From a virus (lineage: Duplodnaviria > Heunggongvirae > Uroviricota > Caudoviricetes), in the IMG/VR virus record IMGVR_UViG_3300045988_162894: DNA of 27,920 nucleotides. One strand, given 5' to 3'. Position 1 is the stretch's first letter; every line of letters starts with the position of its first letter. Positions 3,579 to 16,413 of the stretch are shown here, in pieces. Both the position numbers and the translations under genes were made by a program. The notes beneath the pieces were generated by a model, which saw only the letters and a list, made by a program, of their open reading frames with translations, made no database searches and had not been told where the DNA came from.

Positions 3579-3941
3579 TTAACGACCTGCTGCGCGGAGT
3601 TTTCCGTCAGGTTCACCGGCAAGAGTCAGTAACTGTCCCTGGTCTTCCTGCAGAATAGTCAGGCGACCACCGCGATTGACATACATCGGCGTTTCGGTGG
3701 TGTCTTCTTCGGAAATTTTCCCGCGGTTAGTCGGGCGAACATATGAGAGTTTGTGTTTGATTTTCACACGGTTCTCATCAAATGGTTCGATTTCCAGGTT
3801 GAGTGAGACCTTACCTTTGGTTTTCGTGTTCATCACACCGGAAGCGACTTCACTGAGAACTGCGCCGATTTTGGTTTCAAATACGCCGCCGTCCAGCTCC
3901 CCGATAAATGCCTGCACATCAGTACTGCGTTCGCTAGCCAT
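3579..3941 (-). CDS. YfdP-like hypothetical phage protein (120 aa)
   Basis: The track ORF 3579-4259 extends upstream with non-protein-like R/C-rich sequence. Start placed at ATG 3941, preceded by AGGAG with 8-nt spacing. Confidence 0.55.
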   Translation of the reverse strand: MASERSTDVQAFIGELDGGVFETKIGAVLSEVASGVMNTKTKGKVSLNLEIEPFDENRVKIKHKLSYVRPTNRGKISEEDTTETPMYVNRGGRLTILQEDQGQLLTLAGEPDGKLRAAGR

Positions 3942-3989
3942 TTTGCTGCTCCTCATCATATCGACCCTGCAAGGCCGATTAGTTTCTCC

Positions 3990-4078
3990 ACAAAACAGAG
4001 AAGAACACCTGCGGTGGCAGCCGCCCGGATGGATTGGGTTATGAGCCCGTCGTCCGGTGATGCTCTTCTCTGTTTTGT
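3990..4078. other. Long imperfect hairpin (18-bp arms ACAAAACAGAGAAGAACA / TGCTCTTCTCTGTTTTGT, one mismatch, 53-nt GC-rich loop) within a GC-rich stretch lacking a convincing ORF; candidate structured RNA or DNA site
   Basis: Arms read directly from sequence. The surrounding 3942-4378 has only junk-like overlapping ORFs in the track. Confidence 0.4.
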
Positions 4079-4378
4079 AAAAAGGACGGTACCAGCCGGA
4101 AGCAAGGGTACAAACTGGTACCGCCGGGACTACACACAGCATAAAGTTGTGGTGCCGGGTGCCTCCCGGTGCCTGGCGAAGGTTGCACACCAGACGGGTG
4201 GGTATCCACAGAAGGTCGACTGTCAGCCTCAACCTTAACCCGCGTGCGCTGAGCCGCATTCACCACAACGCTAAGGATTCTCTCTGGTTGAAAATACTTA
4301 GCTGTTATGTGCCTGTCTTTTCACCACTTCAGGCTCGGTGGGATCCTTTTAAGCCCGTATACATAAAAGGAAAATCAA

Positions 4379-4624
4379 ATGACTTTTGATGAAAAAGAAC
4401 TTGATAATGCAATTAATAAAATCATCGTAACGTCGCTCTTTTCCTGTCTCAGCGACACTCAGAAGAAACAGTTCTACGAATCGGTTTTCAACATGATCGA
4501 GCGTTGTTGTTTCTGCGATGCCGACGAGTTACCTGAAAAAATCAGGAAACAGTTGGCTGATGCTCTTCGAGTGCGACTTTCTGACCAATTTTCTGAAATG
4601 TGCTCTCCGAATTTGGACAAATAG
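4379..4624 (+). CDS. Hypothetical small acidic protein (81 aa), opposite orientation to the early-left operon
   Basis: Good RBS (AAGGAAAA, 5-nt spacer) and protein-like sequence. Overlaps convergently with the minus-strand ORF 4542-4817, so at most one of the two is likely real. Confidence 0.35.
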   Translation: MTFDEKELDNAINKIIVTSLFSCLSDTQKKQFYESVFNMIERCCFCDADELPEKIRKQLADALRVRLSDQFSEMCSPNLDK

Positions 4625-4817
4625 AAAAAGGCCATTTCCATTCAGGGTCTGATGGAAATACTTCAGCCTGTTCCAAAGCACGGCGTAAAGAGAACACAAC
4701 TCCAGCCATAATCTGATGTTTCCCATTGGTCCAGCTATCGCCGCTCTGATCTACAGGGGCGGCTATGTCGTATGACCAAACGACTTCACAGTTATTGTTT
4801 AAAATCTGGACTTTCAT
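4542..4817 (-). CDS. Hypothetical small protein (91 aa) in the first-gene position of the presumed early-left (PL) transcript
   Basis: ATG at 4817 with AGGTG RBS 6 nt upstream. No arginine-rich motif, so not an N-like antiterminator. A hairpin plus T-run on the minus strand (4625-4660) lies inside it, which weakens the call. Confidence 0.3.
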   Translation of the reverse strand: MKVQILNNNCEVVWSYDIAAPVDQSGDSWTNGKHQIMAGVVFSLRRALEQAEVFPSDPEWKWPFSICPNSESTFQKIGQKVALEEHQPTVS

Positions 4818-4941: not shown

Positions 4942-5007
4942 AATCTAACTTAACTTAGTTATTATGGCAAGAGAAAACACCAAACTTTTCTTAGTTCGGT
5001 GCCTTAG
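4942..5007 (-). promoter_or_regulatory. Putative OL/PL region: operator-like CTAAC-TTAA-CTTAG (4945-4958) overlapping candidate leftward promoter (-35 TTGCCA at 4965-4970, -10 TAGATT at 4942-4947 on minus strand); further CTTAG copies at 4990-4994 and 5003-5007
   Basis: Same half-site and spacing as the palindromes in the cI-cro intergenic region. Promoter hexamers identified by eye with 17-bp spacer. Confidence 0.4.
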
Positions 5008-5650: not shown

Positions 5651-5747
5651 AGGAGCACCATTTCTTGAATTGCTAAGTAATCTTAGTTTTTATTGACCAA
5701 AGATAGATTTGTAATTAGCATCTAATAAAACTTAGTTTGGAGGGCGT
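5651..5747. promoter_or_regulatory. Immunity-region operator/promoter interval between cI and cro: palindromes CTAAG-TAAT-CTTAG (5673-5686) and CTAAT-AAAA-CTTAG (5722-5735); candidate PR -35 TTGACC (5693-5698) and -10 TAGCAT (5716-5721)
   Basis: Read directly from sequence. Divergent gene arrangement is typical of lambdoid OR/PR/PRM. Confidence 0.6.
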
Positions 5748-9856: not shown

Positions 9857-10852
9857 GTGACCGTGAGAGCATTACTGACCCCTGAAATTGCCCCGCGTAT
9901 GGGGATCGTATTGTTCAGGCCAGGTTCAGAGCTGATGCCCCTGTTTATGCAGGGGCGTGTCCTGCTGGAGCCTGAGCCGGAACGTTATTCATCTTTCGCC
10001 AGTGGTGCCGTTCCGGCGGCATCACAACCGCTGGCGGATGATCCTGCCGTTCGGGCCGTGTTCCGCAATGAGGCAGTGATCCGTCGTGCTGGTGGCGTGG
10101 AATGTCTTGAAAGCTGGTTACTTCGTGAAAAAGGCTGCCAGTGGCCTCATTCCGATTGGCACAGCGAGAACATGACCACAATGCGACACGCGCCGGGCGC
10201 AATCCGTCTGTGCTGGCACTGCGATAACCAGCTGCGTGATCAGTTCACGGAACGGCTGGAATCAATGGCAACGGATAACTGTGCCCGCTGGGTGTTGTCT
10301 GTTGTGCGTCGGGATCTCGGTTTTGATGACAGTCACGTTGTGACAATGCCGGAACTGTGCTGGTGGCTGATTCGTAATGACCTGGCGGATGCCTTACCGG
10401 AAAGTGCAGCCCGTAAGGCACTGAGATTACCGAAGCCTGTTGTGCCGTCTGTCACCCGGGAAAGTGACCTTGTGCCTTCGGTTCCTGCCACCAGCATCAT
10501 CCAGGATAAGGCGAAAAATGTGCTGGCGCTGAAAGTGGATCCGGAGTCGCCGGAGTCTTTTATGTTACGCCCCAAACGTCGCCGCTGGGTTAATGAAAAG
10601 TACACGCGCTGGGTTAAGACGCAGCCGTGCGCATGTTGTGGAAAGCCAGCTGATGATCCCCACCACCTGATAGGCCACGGTCAGGGTGGAATGGGTACAA
10701 AAGCGCATGATCTCTTTGTGTTGCCTTTGTGCAGAAAGCATCACGACGAGCTGCATGCGGATACCGTGACATTTGAAGAGAAGTATGGCTCCCAACTGGA
10801 GCTGATATTTCGTTTTATCGATCGTGCGCTGGCAATTGGCGTACTGGCGTAA
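9857..10852 (+). CDS. DUF968-family phage protein (YdfU-like) with C-terminal HNH-like Cys/His motif
   Basis: 331 aa. C-terminal CACCGKPADDPHHL...HDLFVLPLCRKHHDELH. Sits immediately upstream of Q as in Qin. GTG start. Confidence 0.6.
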   Translation: MTVRALLTPEIAPRMGIVLFRPGSELMPLFMQGRVLLEPEPERYSSFASGAVPAASQPLADDPAVRAVFRNEAVIRRAGGVECLESWLLREKGCQWPHSDWHSENMTTMRHAPGAIRLCWHCDNQLRDQFTERLESMATDNCARWVLSVVRRDLGFDDSHVVTMPELCWWLIRNDLADALPESAARKALRLPKPVVPSVTRESDLVPSVPATSIIQDKAKNVLALKVDPESPESFMLRPKRRRWVNEKYTRWVKTQPCACCGKPADDPHHLIGHGQGGMGTKAHDLFVLPLCRKHHDELHADTVTFEEKYGSQLELIFRFIDRALAIGVLA

Positions 10853-10865
10853 GTGGAGAACGAGC

Positions 10866-11618
10866 ATGAACCTTGAAGCCTTACCAAAATATTACTCCCC
10901 AAAATCTCCAAAATTGAGTGATGCCGCACCGGCGACAGGCTCAGGTGGTTTAACGATTACGGATGTGATGGCTGCGCAGGGGATGGTGCAGTCGAAAGCA
11001 CCGCTTGGGTTTGCCTTATTCCTGGCAAAAGCTGGCGTTCAGGATCCTCAGTTTGCGATTGAAGGTCTGCTCAATTACGCGATGGCACTGGATAACCCGA
11101 CATTGAACAAATTGAGTGAAGAAATCCGGTTACAGATCATCCCTTACCTTGTGAGTTTTGCCTTTGCTGATTATTCCAGGTCTGCGGCAAGTAAGGCTCG
11201 CTGTGAGCCTTGTGCTGGTACTGGATTTCATAATGTATTGCGCGAAGTGGTGAAATACTCCAGAAGCGGGGAGTCTGTTATCAAGGAAGAGTGGGTGAAG
11301 GAACTATGTCAGCATTGTCATGGTAAGGGAGAAGTCAGCACAGCGTGCAGAGGGTGTAAGGGTAAAGGTATTGTCCTGGATGAAAAAAGGACCCGGCTTC
11401 ATGGCGCGCCTGTTTATAAGATTTGTGGGCGTTGCAATGGAAACCGGTTTAGTCGTTTACCAACGACACTGGCGCGGTGTCATGTCCAGAAGCTGGTACC
11501 AGACCTGACTGATTATCAGTGGTACAAAGGATATGCAGATGTCATTGATAAACTGGTTACAAAGTGCTGGCAGGAAGAAGCATATGCTGAGGTGCAATTA
11601 AGAAAAGTGACGAGATAA
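10866..11618 (+). CDS. Late-gene antitermination protein Q-like
   Basis: Zinc-binding Cys clusters (CEPCAGTG, CQHCHGKG, CRGCKGKG). Position directly upstream of a promoter-like element and terminator, then the lysis genes. Confidence 0.7.
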   Translation: MNLEALPKYYSPKSPKLSDAAPATGSGGLTITDVMAAQGMVQSKAPLGFALFLAKAGVQDPQFAIEGLLNYAMALDNPTLNKLSEEIRLQIIPYLVSFAFADYSRSAASKARCEPCAGTGFHNVLREVVKYSRSGESVIKEEWVKELCQHCHGKGEVSTACRGCKGKGIVLDEKRTRLHGAPVYKICGRCNGNRFSRLPTTLARCHVQKLVPDLTDYQWYKGYADVIDKLVTKCWQEEAYAEVQLRKVTR

Positions 11619-12246: not shown

Positions 12247-12546
12247 AAAAATTCCTTAATACTGATAACTGGGCGCACTATACACACGTTCCTGAAGAAA
12301 GCTATAGTTTTTTGATGGGGGTGAAGATGGCTGGATGTCTAAAATAAACATTGCTTCATATGTTCAACTATGCGTTAATGATTGCGTCGGTTTGAAGAAC
12401 AGACGATATACGAAGTAGTTTACTAAAGCAGTTCTCATTTCAGGTGTTATTCACTTATTCCTTCTTTGAGTCTCTCCAATTAAGTACGAAGTCGTTTCTG
12501 TTATACAAGCCATTTATGCCGAAAGGCTCAAGTTAAGGAATGTAGA

Positions 12547-12762
12547 ATGTCAAATAAAATGACTGGTTTAGTAAAATGGTTTAACGCTGATAAAGGTTTC
12601 GGCTTTATTTCTCCTGTTGATGGTAGTAAAGATGTGTTTGTGCATTTTTCTGCGATTCAGAATGATAATTTTCGAACCTTATTTGAAGGTCAAAAGGTTA
12701 CCTTCTCTGTAGAGAGTGGTGCTAAAGGTCCTGCAGCAGCAAATGTCATAATTACTGATTAA
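12547..12762 (+). CDS. cspB: Cold-shock protein CspB-like (CspA family)
   Basis: 71 aa [38 protein letters not shown]...; AAGGA RBS. Confidence 0.8.
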
Positions 12763-13043
12763 AATTCATAGTTTGTCTGTATACGATAACGAAGAAGGCT
12801 GATGCCTGAGTGGAGATACAGACAGAGTGGTGAATATTGGATCTCTTTAATAAATAGTAAGGAGGTCCAATACATGAAACAATGGCCAGCATATTTGGCA
12901 ATAACTTAATCAGGAAAAGTATGCTAACCATTGTGGTGAAGTGCAGGTTTGCTGCATGAATAGTTTTACAGCAGAAGCTAACTGCTGGCATAGCAAAACA
13001 AAGTGCGTAAGTGGATGACTCCCACAAAAAGTACCACAATATT

Positions 13044-15635: not shown

Positions 15636-15997
15636 ATTAATATTAAATCGGATTGTTTTTAGCGCTGAATGTGAAATTTAAATAAAAAGGACTCTTCCAT
15701 GAGTCAAAATCCTTGAAATCTTAAGGGTAAGATAAAAGGTCATTAGACAGAATGACACGTTTTATTAATAAATAAAGCTATTGTTTCATTCGTGTGTTTT
15801 TCTTTACAAAAGTAATCCTTGCTATGGTTGGTTAATCATGCGTTAATGGTGTTCTGGTTTGTTACAAAATTATCTGAAGCAGTCATTGTTATAATTTTAT
15901 TATTTGTACCTCTTGAGATTTCCTTGTTGGTTTTTCTCTCTGATATTTTTTTTCGGACCATTCGCCCAAGGGCTAACTTCTTCAAAAGGTAATAATG

Positions 15998-16210
15998 ATG
16001 TCTAACAAAATGACTGGTTTAGTGAAATGGTTTAACCCTGAAAAAGGTTTTGGTTTCATCACGCCGAAAGATGGTAGCAAAGATGTGTTTGTCCATTTCT
16101 CAGTTATTCAGAGCAACGATTTCAAAACGTTAACTGAGAATCAGGAAGTCGAATTTGGTATTGAGAACGGACCTAAAGGCCCCGCGGCTGTTCATGTAGT
16201 GGCACTTTGA
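15998..16210 (+). CDS. cspI: Cold-shock protein CspI-like (CspA family)
   Basis: [35 protein letters not shown]...; long AT-rich 5' leader typical of csp genes. Confidence 0.8.
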
Positions 16211-16413
16211 GGTAGAAAATATTACAAACCATATTCACTTTAGATGCCCGTGTTGCCATGGTTCTCAGTATAGAACATCATCTTTTGATGTTTCTGACAG
16301 GAATCCTTTCGGGGCAAAATGTATCTTTTGTAAATCAATGATGATTACATTTGATAATATTTCACAATACTTAAATGTTAGCCGTCTGTCGTTAGATTTA
16401 AGAAAGTGAAAAT

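Follow-up and report, generated by a model that had tools for sequence, protein, structure and literature searches.

An STnc100-like RNA, a terminator and a long hairpin form a three-part RNA module upstream of yfdP in an SfV/e14-type lambdoid prophage

Structured RNA in the gap upstream of yfdP

The window analysed here is the whole stretch of 27,920 nucleotides (nt) of the viral record IMGVR_UViG_3300045988_162894, a lambdoid prophage of the SfV/e14 type, and the element in question fills the gap at positions 3943-4378 (436 base pairs, bp), directly upstream of a yfdP-like gene. The gap is 99.3% identical to phage SfV, in which a single 'putative rho-independent terminator' overlapping the upstream edge, and nothing else, is annotated, and it was found in about 2,800 of 5,426 complete E. 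coli genomes. Since yfdP, yfdQ and yfdR are all on the minus strand, the sense strand of the gap is also the minus strand. On this strand the gap is a three-part RNA module, composed of an STnc100-like RNA (4302-4146, including hairpin P0), an intrinsic terminator and a long hairpin (hairpin 2). The parts are listed in 5' to 3' order of the RNA.

4324..4341, minus: small hairpin CCACCGAGCCUGAAGUGG, on the upstream border of the conserved module; also seen in Lelliottia, Buttiauxella and other relatives
4270..4302, minus: hairpin P0 (GCUAAGUAUUUUC / GAGAAUCCUUAGC), directly 5' of the core; inverted repeat I2
4146..4269, minus: STnc100-like core, a five-way junction of about 124 nt with a pseudoknot (Rfam match, model R1, covariation)
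4269-4261 with 4154-4146, minus: helix P1 (GUUGUGGUG / CACCACAAC), closing the five-way junction
4257-4242, minus: P2, 5-bp hairpin with a bulged A, after the junction AAU
about 4241-4196, minus: P3 domain, variable
4236-4230 with 4185-4179, minus: pseudoknot, AAGGUUG with CAACCUU (loop of P4)
4195-4188 with 4178-4171, minus: P4
4169-4155, minus: P5 (CCGGG-AGGCA-CCCGG), one A past P4, stacked directly on helix P1
4127..4145, minus: single-stranded linker UUUAUGCUGUGUGUAGUCC with the motif GUGUG(U/G)AG, kept in relatives
4079..4126, minus: intrinsic terminator, 13-bp stem (CGGCGGUACCAG... / ...CUGGUACCGUC) followed by UCCUUUUU; inverted repeat I3, -20.8 kcal/mol
3990..4078, minus: hairpin 2, Y-shaped RNA with a 21-bp basal stem and two inner hairpins (inverted repeat I1, fold)
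3939..3989, minus: yfdP leader 3' of hairpin 2, with conserved GGAGAAAC, a small hairpin (3977-3962) and the yfdP ribosome-binding site (Shine-Dalgarno GAGGAG, ATG at 3942)

A GC-rich, structured and non-coding element of the early-left operon had been proposed here in a preliminary description made from the letters alone, and the proposal holds. The GC content is 0.56-0.59 over 4000-4299 against 0.39-0.50 in the flanks. Folding of the minus strand over 3930-4310 gave -159.6 kcal/mol (z = -7.2), a value reached by none of 100 shuffles, as compared with -141.9 kcal/mol (z = -2.5) for the plus strand. An RNA made from the plus strand was rejected on account of this weak fold, and because the G-U pairs of the stems exist on the minus strand only. 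Open reading frames (ORFs) are present in the gap, one of 226 amino acids (aa) in frame with yfdP and others of 49-80 aa, so that the claim of no convincing ORF is correct in the sense that none of them is conserved as a reading frame; no match to Pfam or NCBIfam was found for the ORFs of the gap.

The hairpin arms described at 3990-4007 and 4061-4078 are present and extend to 25 nt (3990-4014 and 4054-4078, 84% complementary, with 39 nt between). The hairpin 2 thus formed always starts directly after the U tract of the terminator, and is kept, with compensatory changes, in e14, in Salmonella ST64B and sal3, and in Klebsiella Kp4866-6; two G-U pairs in its stem allow pairing on the minus strand only. 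The GGTACC-containing sequences GGTACCAGCCGG (4088-4099) and GGTACCGCCGGG (4117-4128) are likewise present, but they did not come up as a family of direct repeats; GGTACC is a palindrome, and what had been taken for direct repeats are the arms of an inverted repeat (I3, CGGTACCAG / CTGGTACCG at 4087-4095 and 4115-4123, 100% match), namely those of the terminator hairpin. In ST64B, phiES15, HK639, Fels-1 and Sakai a terminator of different sequence is found in the same place. The parts of the module are separable, as judged from Buttiauxella, in which the core is joined straight to a homologous yfdP leader without terminator and without hairpin 2. Many homologues begin to match at about position 4341 of the window, and the linker motif GUGUG(U/G)AG is retained in relatives from Salmonella, Cronobacter and Pantoea despite differing flanks.

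Pairing in the core is conserved under changing sequence. The loop regions of P2 and P5 are near-invariant across genera, while the stems covary among Escherichia, Salmonella, Klebsiella, Pantoea, Buttiauxella and phage P1; the Klebsiella copy, for example, has a P5 stem of GGUGG/CCACC with the loop AGGCA kept. On a model-fitted alignment (A3, 54 sequences), 99.1% of the cells of helices P1, P2 and P5 are paired, as against 30-50% with slid partners, and 12 of the 18 pairs change on both sides, which was matched in none of 500 shuffles. Counting of pairs in fixed columns of a MAFFT alignment (A2) was replaced because registers shift by 1-4 columns between clades, and the pseudoknot, the 5' strand of which starts 2-4 nt past P2, was scored by position-anchored detection and a partner-swap test. 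Among 43 representatives, P4 and the pseudoknot each occur in 22 distinct sequences. Own partners paired better than swapped ones for the pseudoknot (7.9 vs 5.5 bp, p = 1.7e-11), P4 (7.2 vs 5.0 bp, p = 6e-10) and P0 (7.8 vs 6.2 bp, p = 1e-5), these p-values overstating independence because the sequences are related to one another. For the pseudoknot a control with shuffled loops discriminates weakly, as 33% of shuffles reach at least 6 bp. The arms of P0 change jointly, being GAUAAG/CUUAUC in ST64B and AAGAGCAUUC/GAAUGCUCUU in phage P1. A kissing contact between the loops of P5 and P4 was also considered from two coincident changes (phage P1 vs L116, and L044 vs L012; L numbers denote loci of relatives); it was not retained, because the L044 change falls inside the pseudoknot helix and the one case left is tentative.

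The same DNA has been annotated as protein-coding. In the e14 prophage of K-12 an intact ORF of 103 aa, ymfH (L003 2582-2893), is annotated over the gap, and the window-type copy is called a 'frameshifted hypothetical protein' by the Prokaryotic Genome Annotation Pipeline (PGAP). A decayed or frameshifted ymfH-like gene would account for both annotations, and the C-terminal part of YmfH matches a small PHROG family without assigned function. Alignment of the window-type and K-12 sequences revealed, however, that three reading frames of the common sequence are fused in YmfH through two 1-nt deletions, of which one removes the A of the otherwise conserved GGGAGGCACCC inside the P5 loop, adjoining a G>A change. 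The ymfH frame was found in the e14 allele only, and this allele is in the minority (282 records at identity of at least 99%, against 1809 with the window-type allele). Furthermore, 1-nt insertions or deletions distinguish the cores of the window and ST64B, substitutions in hairpin 2 fall evenly on all three codon positions (nonsynonymous 16-23 vs synonymous 3-4), and the Klebsiella copy of hairpin 2 has in-frame stops. Together with the absence of Pfam and NCBIfam matches, these findings leave a protein gene hardly probable at all. The suggestion of a decayed gene remnant is in effect reversed, the sole intact ORF having arisen by two deletions in a decayed copy of the RNA; an intact gene is formally present in homologues, as K-12 ymfH, but the evidence says that this ORF is an artefact.

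Most likely, K-12 ymfH is a decayed copy of the RNA element, and what underlies both the ymfH annotation and the 'frameshifted hypothetical protein' calls on the window-type copy (present in about 1,800 complete E. coli genome records) is most probably an RNA element and not a protein gene. A literature search for ymfH yielded nothing on an RNA. Over-expressed 'ymfH' was among the triggers of RcaT, the toxin of retron-Sen2 (2020 preprint, 10.1101/2020.06.22.160242); if ymfH is an RNA remnant, this triggering could be an RNA effect.

Relatedness to STnc100

The Rfam scan proposed for this region gave one clear match, to RF02076 (STnc100), on the minus strand at 4299-4076 with 41.6 bits and with model positions 1-206 all aligned (E = 2.6e-7 in a permissive 1.3-kb scan and 5.6e-6 over the whole window). 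The terminator at 4126-4079 corresponds to the 3' hairpin of the Rfam model, and the pseudoknot is absent from the RF02076 structure line in this match. No other STnc100-like copy was found in a scan of the whole window. For comparison in the opposite direction, a covariance model (R1) was built from 32 non-redundant cores of the subfamily to which the gap RNA belongs, the subfamily being recognized by an exact pattern of two invariant blocks, GGTGAATGCGGC and CCGGGARGCACCCGGCACC, separated by 65-95 nt. R1 gave 99 bits for the window copy and 83 bits for the e14 copy, the latter not being listed by Rfam in a 56-kb multi-locus scan at E <= 0.01. Canonical STnc100 loci were also detected by R1, in VT2-Sakai (57 bits), Fels-1 (55, 47 and 28) and HK639 (45), and so were a variant from Klebsiella (44 bits) and a core of Stx2k and Stx2c phages that has diverged strongly (32 bits). 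The Rfam model in turn gave 208 bits for VT2-Sakai, 138, 83 and 59 for the three Fels-1 copies between Q and the holin gene, and 53 for HK639, and 30-41 bits for copies at the position of the gap RNA (phiES15, 41; SfV, 40; sal3, 38; ST64B, 35; phage P1, 33; Pantoea AH07, 30).

Since R1 and RF02076 each detect the other group, the relatedness is reciprocal, and the gap RNA is very probably a structured RNA of the STnc100 family. As far as sequence and predicted fold can tell, it is a divergent member of STnc100/PasD, a context-shifted variant of a known phage RNA family, in keeping with the small RNA (sRNA) that the preliminary description had listed among its options. The closing helix, the GGUGAAU junction, the hairpin P2 with its bulged A and the invariant block CACCGGGAGGCACCCGGCACC are common to the gap RNA and to the aligned STnc100 copies of Sakai, Fels-1 and HK639; both have a 3' intrinsic terminator, both are phage-borne, and the orientation of both follows the surrounding operon. 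The gap RNA differs from STnc100 in that its P2 stem is altered by three compensatory pairs (GCGGC.. vs CCCCC..), in the addition of P0 and the GUGUG(U/G)AG linker, and in that many of its relatives have no terminator. The position is also different, the gap RNA lying in the early-left leader past the repressor gene and STnc100 between Q or stx and the lysis genes.

Canonical STnc100 lies 75 nt downstream of stx2B in Stx2 phages (PMC12370729), and the VT2-Sakai copy is located downstream of stx2B. It overlaps EcOnc27/sRNA103, an Hfq-binding sRNA of the Stx2 phages of enterohaemorrhagic E. coli that was found experimentally (PMC12711010). PasD1 and PasD2 of the enteropathogenic E. coli strain E2348/69, known from Hfq RIL-seq (in which interacting RNAs are ligated and sequenced) and northern blots, are structurally related to STnc100 according to Zhu, Shabalina and Storz, and reportedly differ from STnc100 in the seed region (bioRxiv 10.64898/2026.05.13.724894). 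PasD resembles the gap RNA in being prophage-encoded and provided with a terminator, and it is Hfq-associated, a link that for the gap RNA is predicted from the family. It differs in its location in the late region, where it is linked to Q and lpxR, the likeness being drawn from the published description of PasD.

Several STnc100-type cores may occur in one phage, as in Fels-1 (three cores, L010 1996-3751, from Q to the holin gene) and on one IMG/VR contig (three cores, L035 261-689 and 10172-10297). In VT2-Sakai the anti-sRNA AsxR, on the opposite strand, abuts the terminator of canonical STnc100 (L011 2378-2637).

Operon setting and distribution

The neighbours of the gap in the window are as follows.

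10824-11618: Q antiterminator gene, further right
5650-5024, minus: LexA-type repressor gene
4942..4996, minus: probable pL, a promoter-like site (TTGCCA, 17-nt spacer, TAGATT; 4970->4942, promoter scan) with operator-like repeats
4542..4817, minus: ymfJ-like ORF of 91 aa, first ORF of the early-left transcript (ORF list; phrog_3195, E 3.8e-65; annotation of relatives)
3579..3942, minus: yfdP-like gene, first past the gap (ORF list; annotation of relatives; phrog_204)

Cro and a CII-like protein are also encoded in the neighbourhood. The promoter-like site at 4970->4942 is bracketed by two operator-like repeats (4943-4960 and 4979-4996), which match a pair in the cI/cro gap (5673-5689 and 5720-5738), and is probably pL. 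Four related operator-like repeats of 17-18 nt (CTAA...CTTAGTT) are thus seen, two on either side of the repressor gene (spans 4943-4996 and 5673-5738). The ORF at 4379-4624, which bounds the gap on the right and was called the next gene in the preliminary description, lies on the plus strand and hence is not simply a further member of the operon; this ymfI-like ORF (phrog_3311) is convergent and overlapping with the ymfJ-like ORF (4817-4542, minus, phrog_3195), and both PHROG families lack an assigned function. No promoter of the RNA element's own was found upstream of it on the minus strand in the promoter scan, the hexamers there being poor by eye. As had been noted before, no N-like antiterminator is recognized in the window; the small neighbouring ORFs gave no Pfam match, and in PHROGs they matched only families of unassigned function.

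The exact-pattern search detected the subfamily in 18 species-representative genomes (Escherichia, Shigella, Lelliottia, Pseudescherichia, Klebsiella, Buttiauxella, Pantoea and Mixta) and on more than 120 IMG/VR contigs. A cI-like repressor gene is located upstream on the same strand within 3 kb in 109 of the 146 subfamily-core loci, and a yfdP-like gene follows within 400 nt downstream in 54 of them. Phage P1 and about 590 P1-like plasmid records carry the core within the ban operon, where the start codon of tciA follows about 30 nt later. The family STnc100/PasD thereby gains, besides its place in the late region of Stx-type phages, a second fixed one just past the repressor gene, where the early-left operon begins; it also extends to P1-like phage-plasmids (590 plasmid records) and over at least seven genera. 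In 16 of 43 non-redundant relatives (e.g., L009 of phage P1, L016, L020 and L088) helix P1 is directly preceded on its 5' side by a boxA-like UGCUCU[UC], with about 0.003 expected per site; at the equivalent place in the window, within 4270-4285, the copy has AAUCCUUAGCG instead.

Two known antitermination systems of lambdoid phages invite comparison. HK022 put is about 70 nt long and consists of two stem-loops, putL lying just after pL and putR about 270 nt after the start of pR (PMC9378689). Like put, the gap RNA is a structured RNA in the early-operon leader of an N-less lambdoid phage and is followed by terminators, a likeness of position and possibly of logic. Unlike put, it is a five-way junction of about 124 nt with a pseudoknot, is about 630 nt from the probable pL, and is present in one copy, no second copy by analogy to putR being found in the whole-window scan. 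R1 gave no match at E <= 1 in the complete HK022 genome, a search made in one direction only (R1 vs HK022). The put-like site named in the preliminary description is therefore rejected as a matter of homology, given the different size, architecture and copy number; the gap RNA may work like put and yet be no member of the put family, whose read-through of terminators depends on the zinc-binding domain of the beta' subunit of RNA polymerase. HK639 shares a 22-nt motif and was considered as a hint of a put site, but its copy is located between Q and the lysis genes and is thus a late-region STnc100, not one in put position.

With lambda the gap RNA has in common its place on the phage map, equal to that of nutL-N-tL1. 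P5 resembles boxB in having a 5-bp stem and a 5-nt loop, and UGCUCU[UC] of some relatives resembles boxA. The loop AGGCA is, however, not GNRA-like, the boxA-like motif, where present, is about 110 nt from P5 in sequence, and no N-like protein was found. A lambda-type nut site, in which boxA (CGCUCUUA / UGCUCUUU) stands a few nt upstream of boxB and an N-like protein is encoded, was not found in the window, the copy in the window having no boxA match.

Two further observations concern the surroundings of related loci. Upstream of the cores of a Klebsiella phage (L007 1440-1780) and an Stx2k phage (L152 2100-2340) there is another conserved GC-rich stretch, containing a hairpin CC(U/C)GGGAAGAG(A/U)CC(A/G)GG. 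In SfV, matches to C4 antisense RNA and isrK are located inside orf37, the 'immunity region' (L002 763-951), and no such matches were found in the window.

Possible modes of action

Transcription from pL would pass through the 91-aa ymfJ-like ORF (4817-4542) into the gap and then into yfdP. In a derepressed prophage, most of these transcripts would end at the terminator, at about 4079, and trimming of the 5' end would leave a stable RNA of about 220 nt. This RNA is predicted to bind Hfq through the terminator and its U tail, and to act in trans through the conserved single-stranded linker (GCUGUGUGUAG), which is a candidate for the seed or, instead, for an alternative pairing partner of the 3' strand of P2; action of this kind is reported for the canonical relatives EcOnc27/sRNA103 and PasD. 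The same terminator would limit transcription into yfdP-yfdQ-yfdR, and in e14 into xis-int. Transcripts that read through would carry hairpin 2, the 21-bp stem of which has the duplex length required by RNase III (about 20 bp or more of near-perfect double-stranded RNA). RNase III sites occur in phage early operons, such as the lambda N leader and T7, and the position of this predicted 21-bp duplex just upstream of a gene is the same, which suggests hairpin 2 as a candidate RNase III site and a probable site of processing or stability control for the yfdP messenger RNA (mRNA).

The whole of this composite, an STnc100-type RNA released at the terminator as an Hfq-type sRNA, with the terminator gating yfdPQR and hairpin 2 serving in processing, is in our estimation evenly balanced between right and wrong. 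Its central part, that action in trans as an sRNA is the main job of the gap RNA, is put forward tentatively and with somewhat less assurance; it is the most likely reading of the job because of the homology to Hfq-binding members, the good terminator and the lack of an own promoter. It is known that sRNAs can derive from the 3' ends of mRNAs, and the gap RNA, with its predicted ends, would likewise share the terminator of the transcript of the upstream ORF without a promoter of its own.

Several observations weigh against a trans-acting sRNA. Expression of the gap RNA, like the function of its family, is a matter of prediction. The STnc100 score of 41.6 bits is below the Rfam gathering score of 47 bits, so that the match is not listed at the gathering threshold. 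The U tail of the terminator has 5 U only, and no terminator was detected by scanning past the core in about 40% of 117 distinct subfamily loci. In many of these terminator-less loci a Shine-Dalgarno sequence and a start codon follow 32-37 or 53-66 nt on, belonging to unrelated genes (phage P1 tciA, Buttiauxella yfdP), an arrangement more in keeping with a leader element than with a terminated sRNA. For an sRNA that acts by plain base pairing, moreover, a pseudoknotted junction with invariant loops is uncommon; the five-way junction, pseudoknot, covarying stems and invariant loops suggest instead a conserved partner, and call the simple seed-pairing view into question. Finally, the phage must pass the terminator to express yfdPQR or xis-int, for which the sRNA model gives no explanation.

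These points lead to a serious, if rather unlikely, alternative, in which the core acts in cis, as a leader RNA that is read by a conserved machine of the host (the ribosome, or RNA polymerase by itself or with Nus factors), so as to allow early-left expression past the terminator(s) or to tune translation or stability of the next gene. In its mode of action such a leader would resemble HK022 put, the Bacillus EAR element or a riboswitch, while belonging to none of those families. The constant position just past a same-strand cI-like repressor gene (109 of 146 loci), at the head of the early-left genes, agrees with it; lambda nutL-N-tL1 and HK022 putL occupy the equivalent map position. So do the absence of a recognizable N-like protein in front of a -20.8 kcal/mol terminator directly past the core, the alternation of the 3' part between a terminator and the start codon of unrelated genes, the lack of an own promoter, the invariant loops and junctions, and the boxA-like motif 5' of helix P1 in 16 of 43 relatives. 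On the other hand, the window has a single copy, with no counterpart in the rightward operon, the boxA-like motif is missing from this copy, and homology to put is absent. Canonical members are located in late operons already served by Q, end in terminators and overlap Hfq-binding sRNAs, and the search for alternative terminator/antiterminator pairing yielded imperfect candidates only. Doubtful in its more specific form, this alternative would make the core a leader licensing early-left transcription or translation past the terminator in N-less lambdoid phages (SfV, e14, ST64B and phiES15) and in the P1 ban operon, with the late STnc100/PasD sRNAs as derived copies; if true, a cis-acting leader would represent a new class of RNA-based antitermination or of riboswitch-like control.

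The gap could also be a stop and processing signal only, with the terminator and hairpin 2 as an insulator between the immunity region and yfdPQR or xis-int, and with the core as a passenger. The strong terminator and the long stem would suit this role, e14 retains both in spite of its damaged core, and in Stx2c and Stx2k phages the shared part, at 96% identity, is limited to terminator, hairpin 2 and leader, next to a core that has diverged much further. Against a passenger, two invariant blocks (12 and 19 nt), the pseudoknot and the covarying stems are kept over at least seven genera and three operon contexts, and the core occurs without any terminator in many relatives; this explanation is improbable. 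Still less is to be said for a DNA-level feature, with the inverted repeats as a protein-binding or recombination site or as a small mobile insertion. Hairpin 2 is indeed a 25-nt inverted repeat, and the segment of terminator and hairpin 2 that is missing in Buttiauxella is flanked by similar short sequences (GUGUGUAG ... GUGGAG), like an insertion. But on the opposite strand the G-U pairs of the stems would turn into A-C mismatches, the fold of the minus strand is better by 18 kcal/mol than that of the plus strand, and the covariation preserves pairing and not sequence, all of which makes a DNA-level role very improbable. The gap RNA offers a handle on how N-less lambdoid phages pass early terminators to express their excision genes.

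Elsewhere in the window, the opposite strand has a gene (171-1385, plus) for a 404-aa DUF6602 protein to the left of the yfdR-like gene, possibly cargo at the prophage end. Downstream of the Q gene there are phage-borne cold-shock genes, with two full-length matches to the cspA thermoregulator 5' untranslated region (RF01766, 158 and 114 bits) at 12386-12825 and 15841-16256 on the plus strand.

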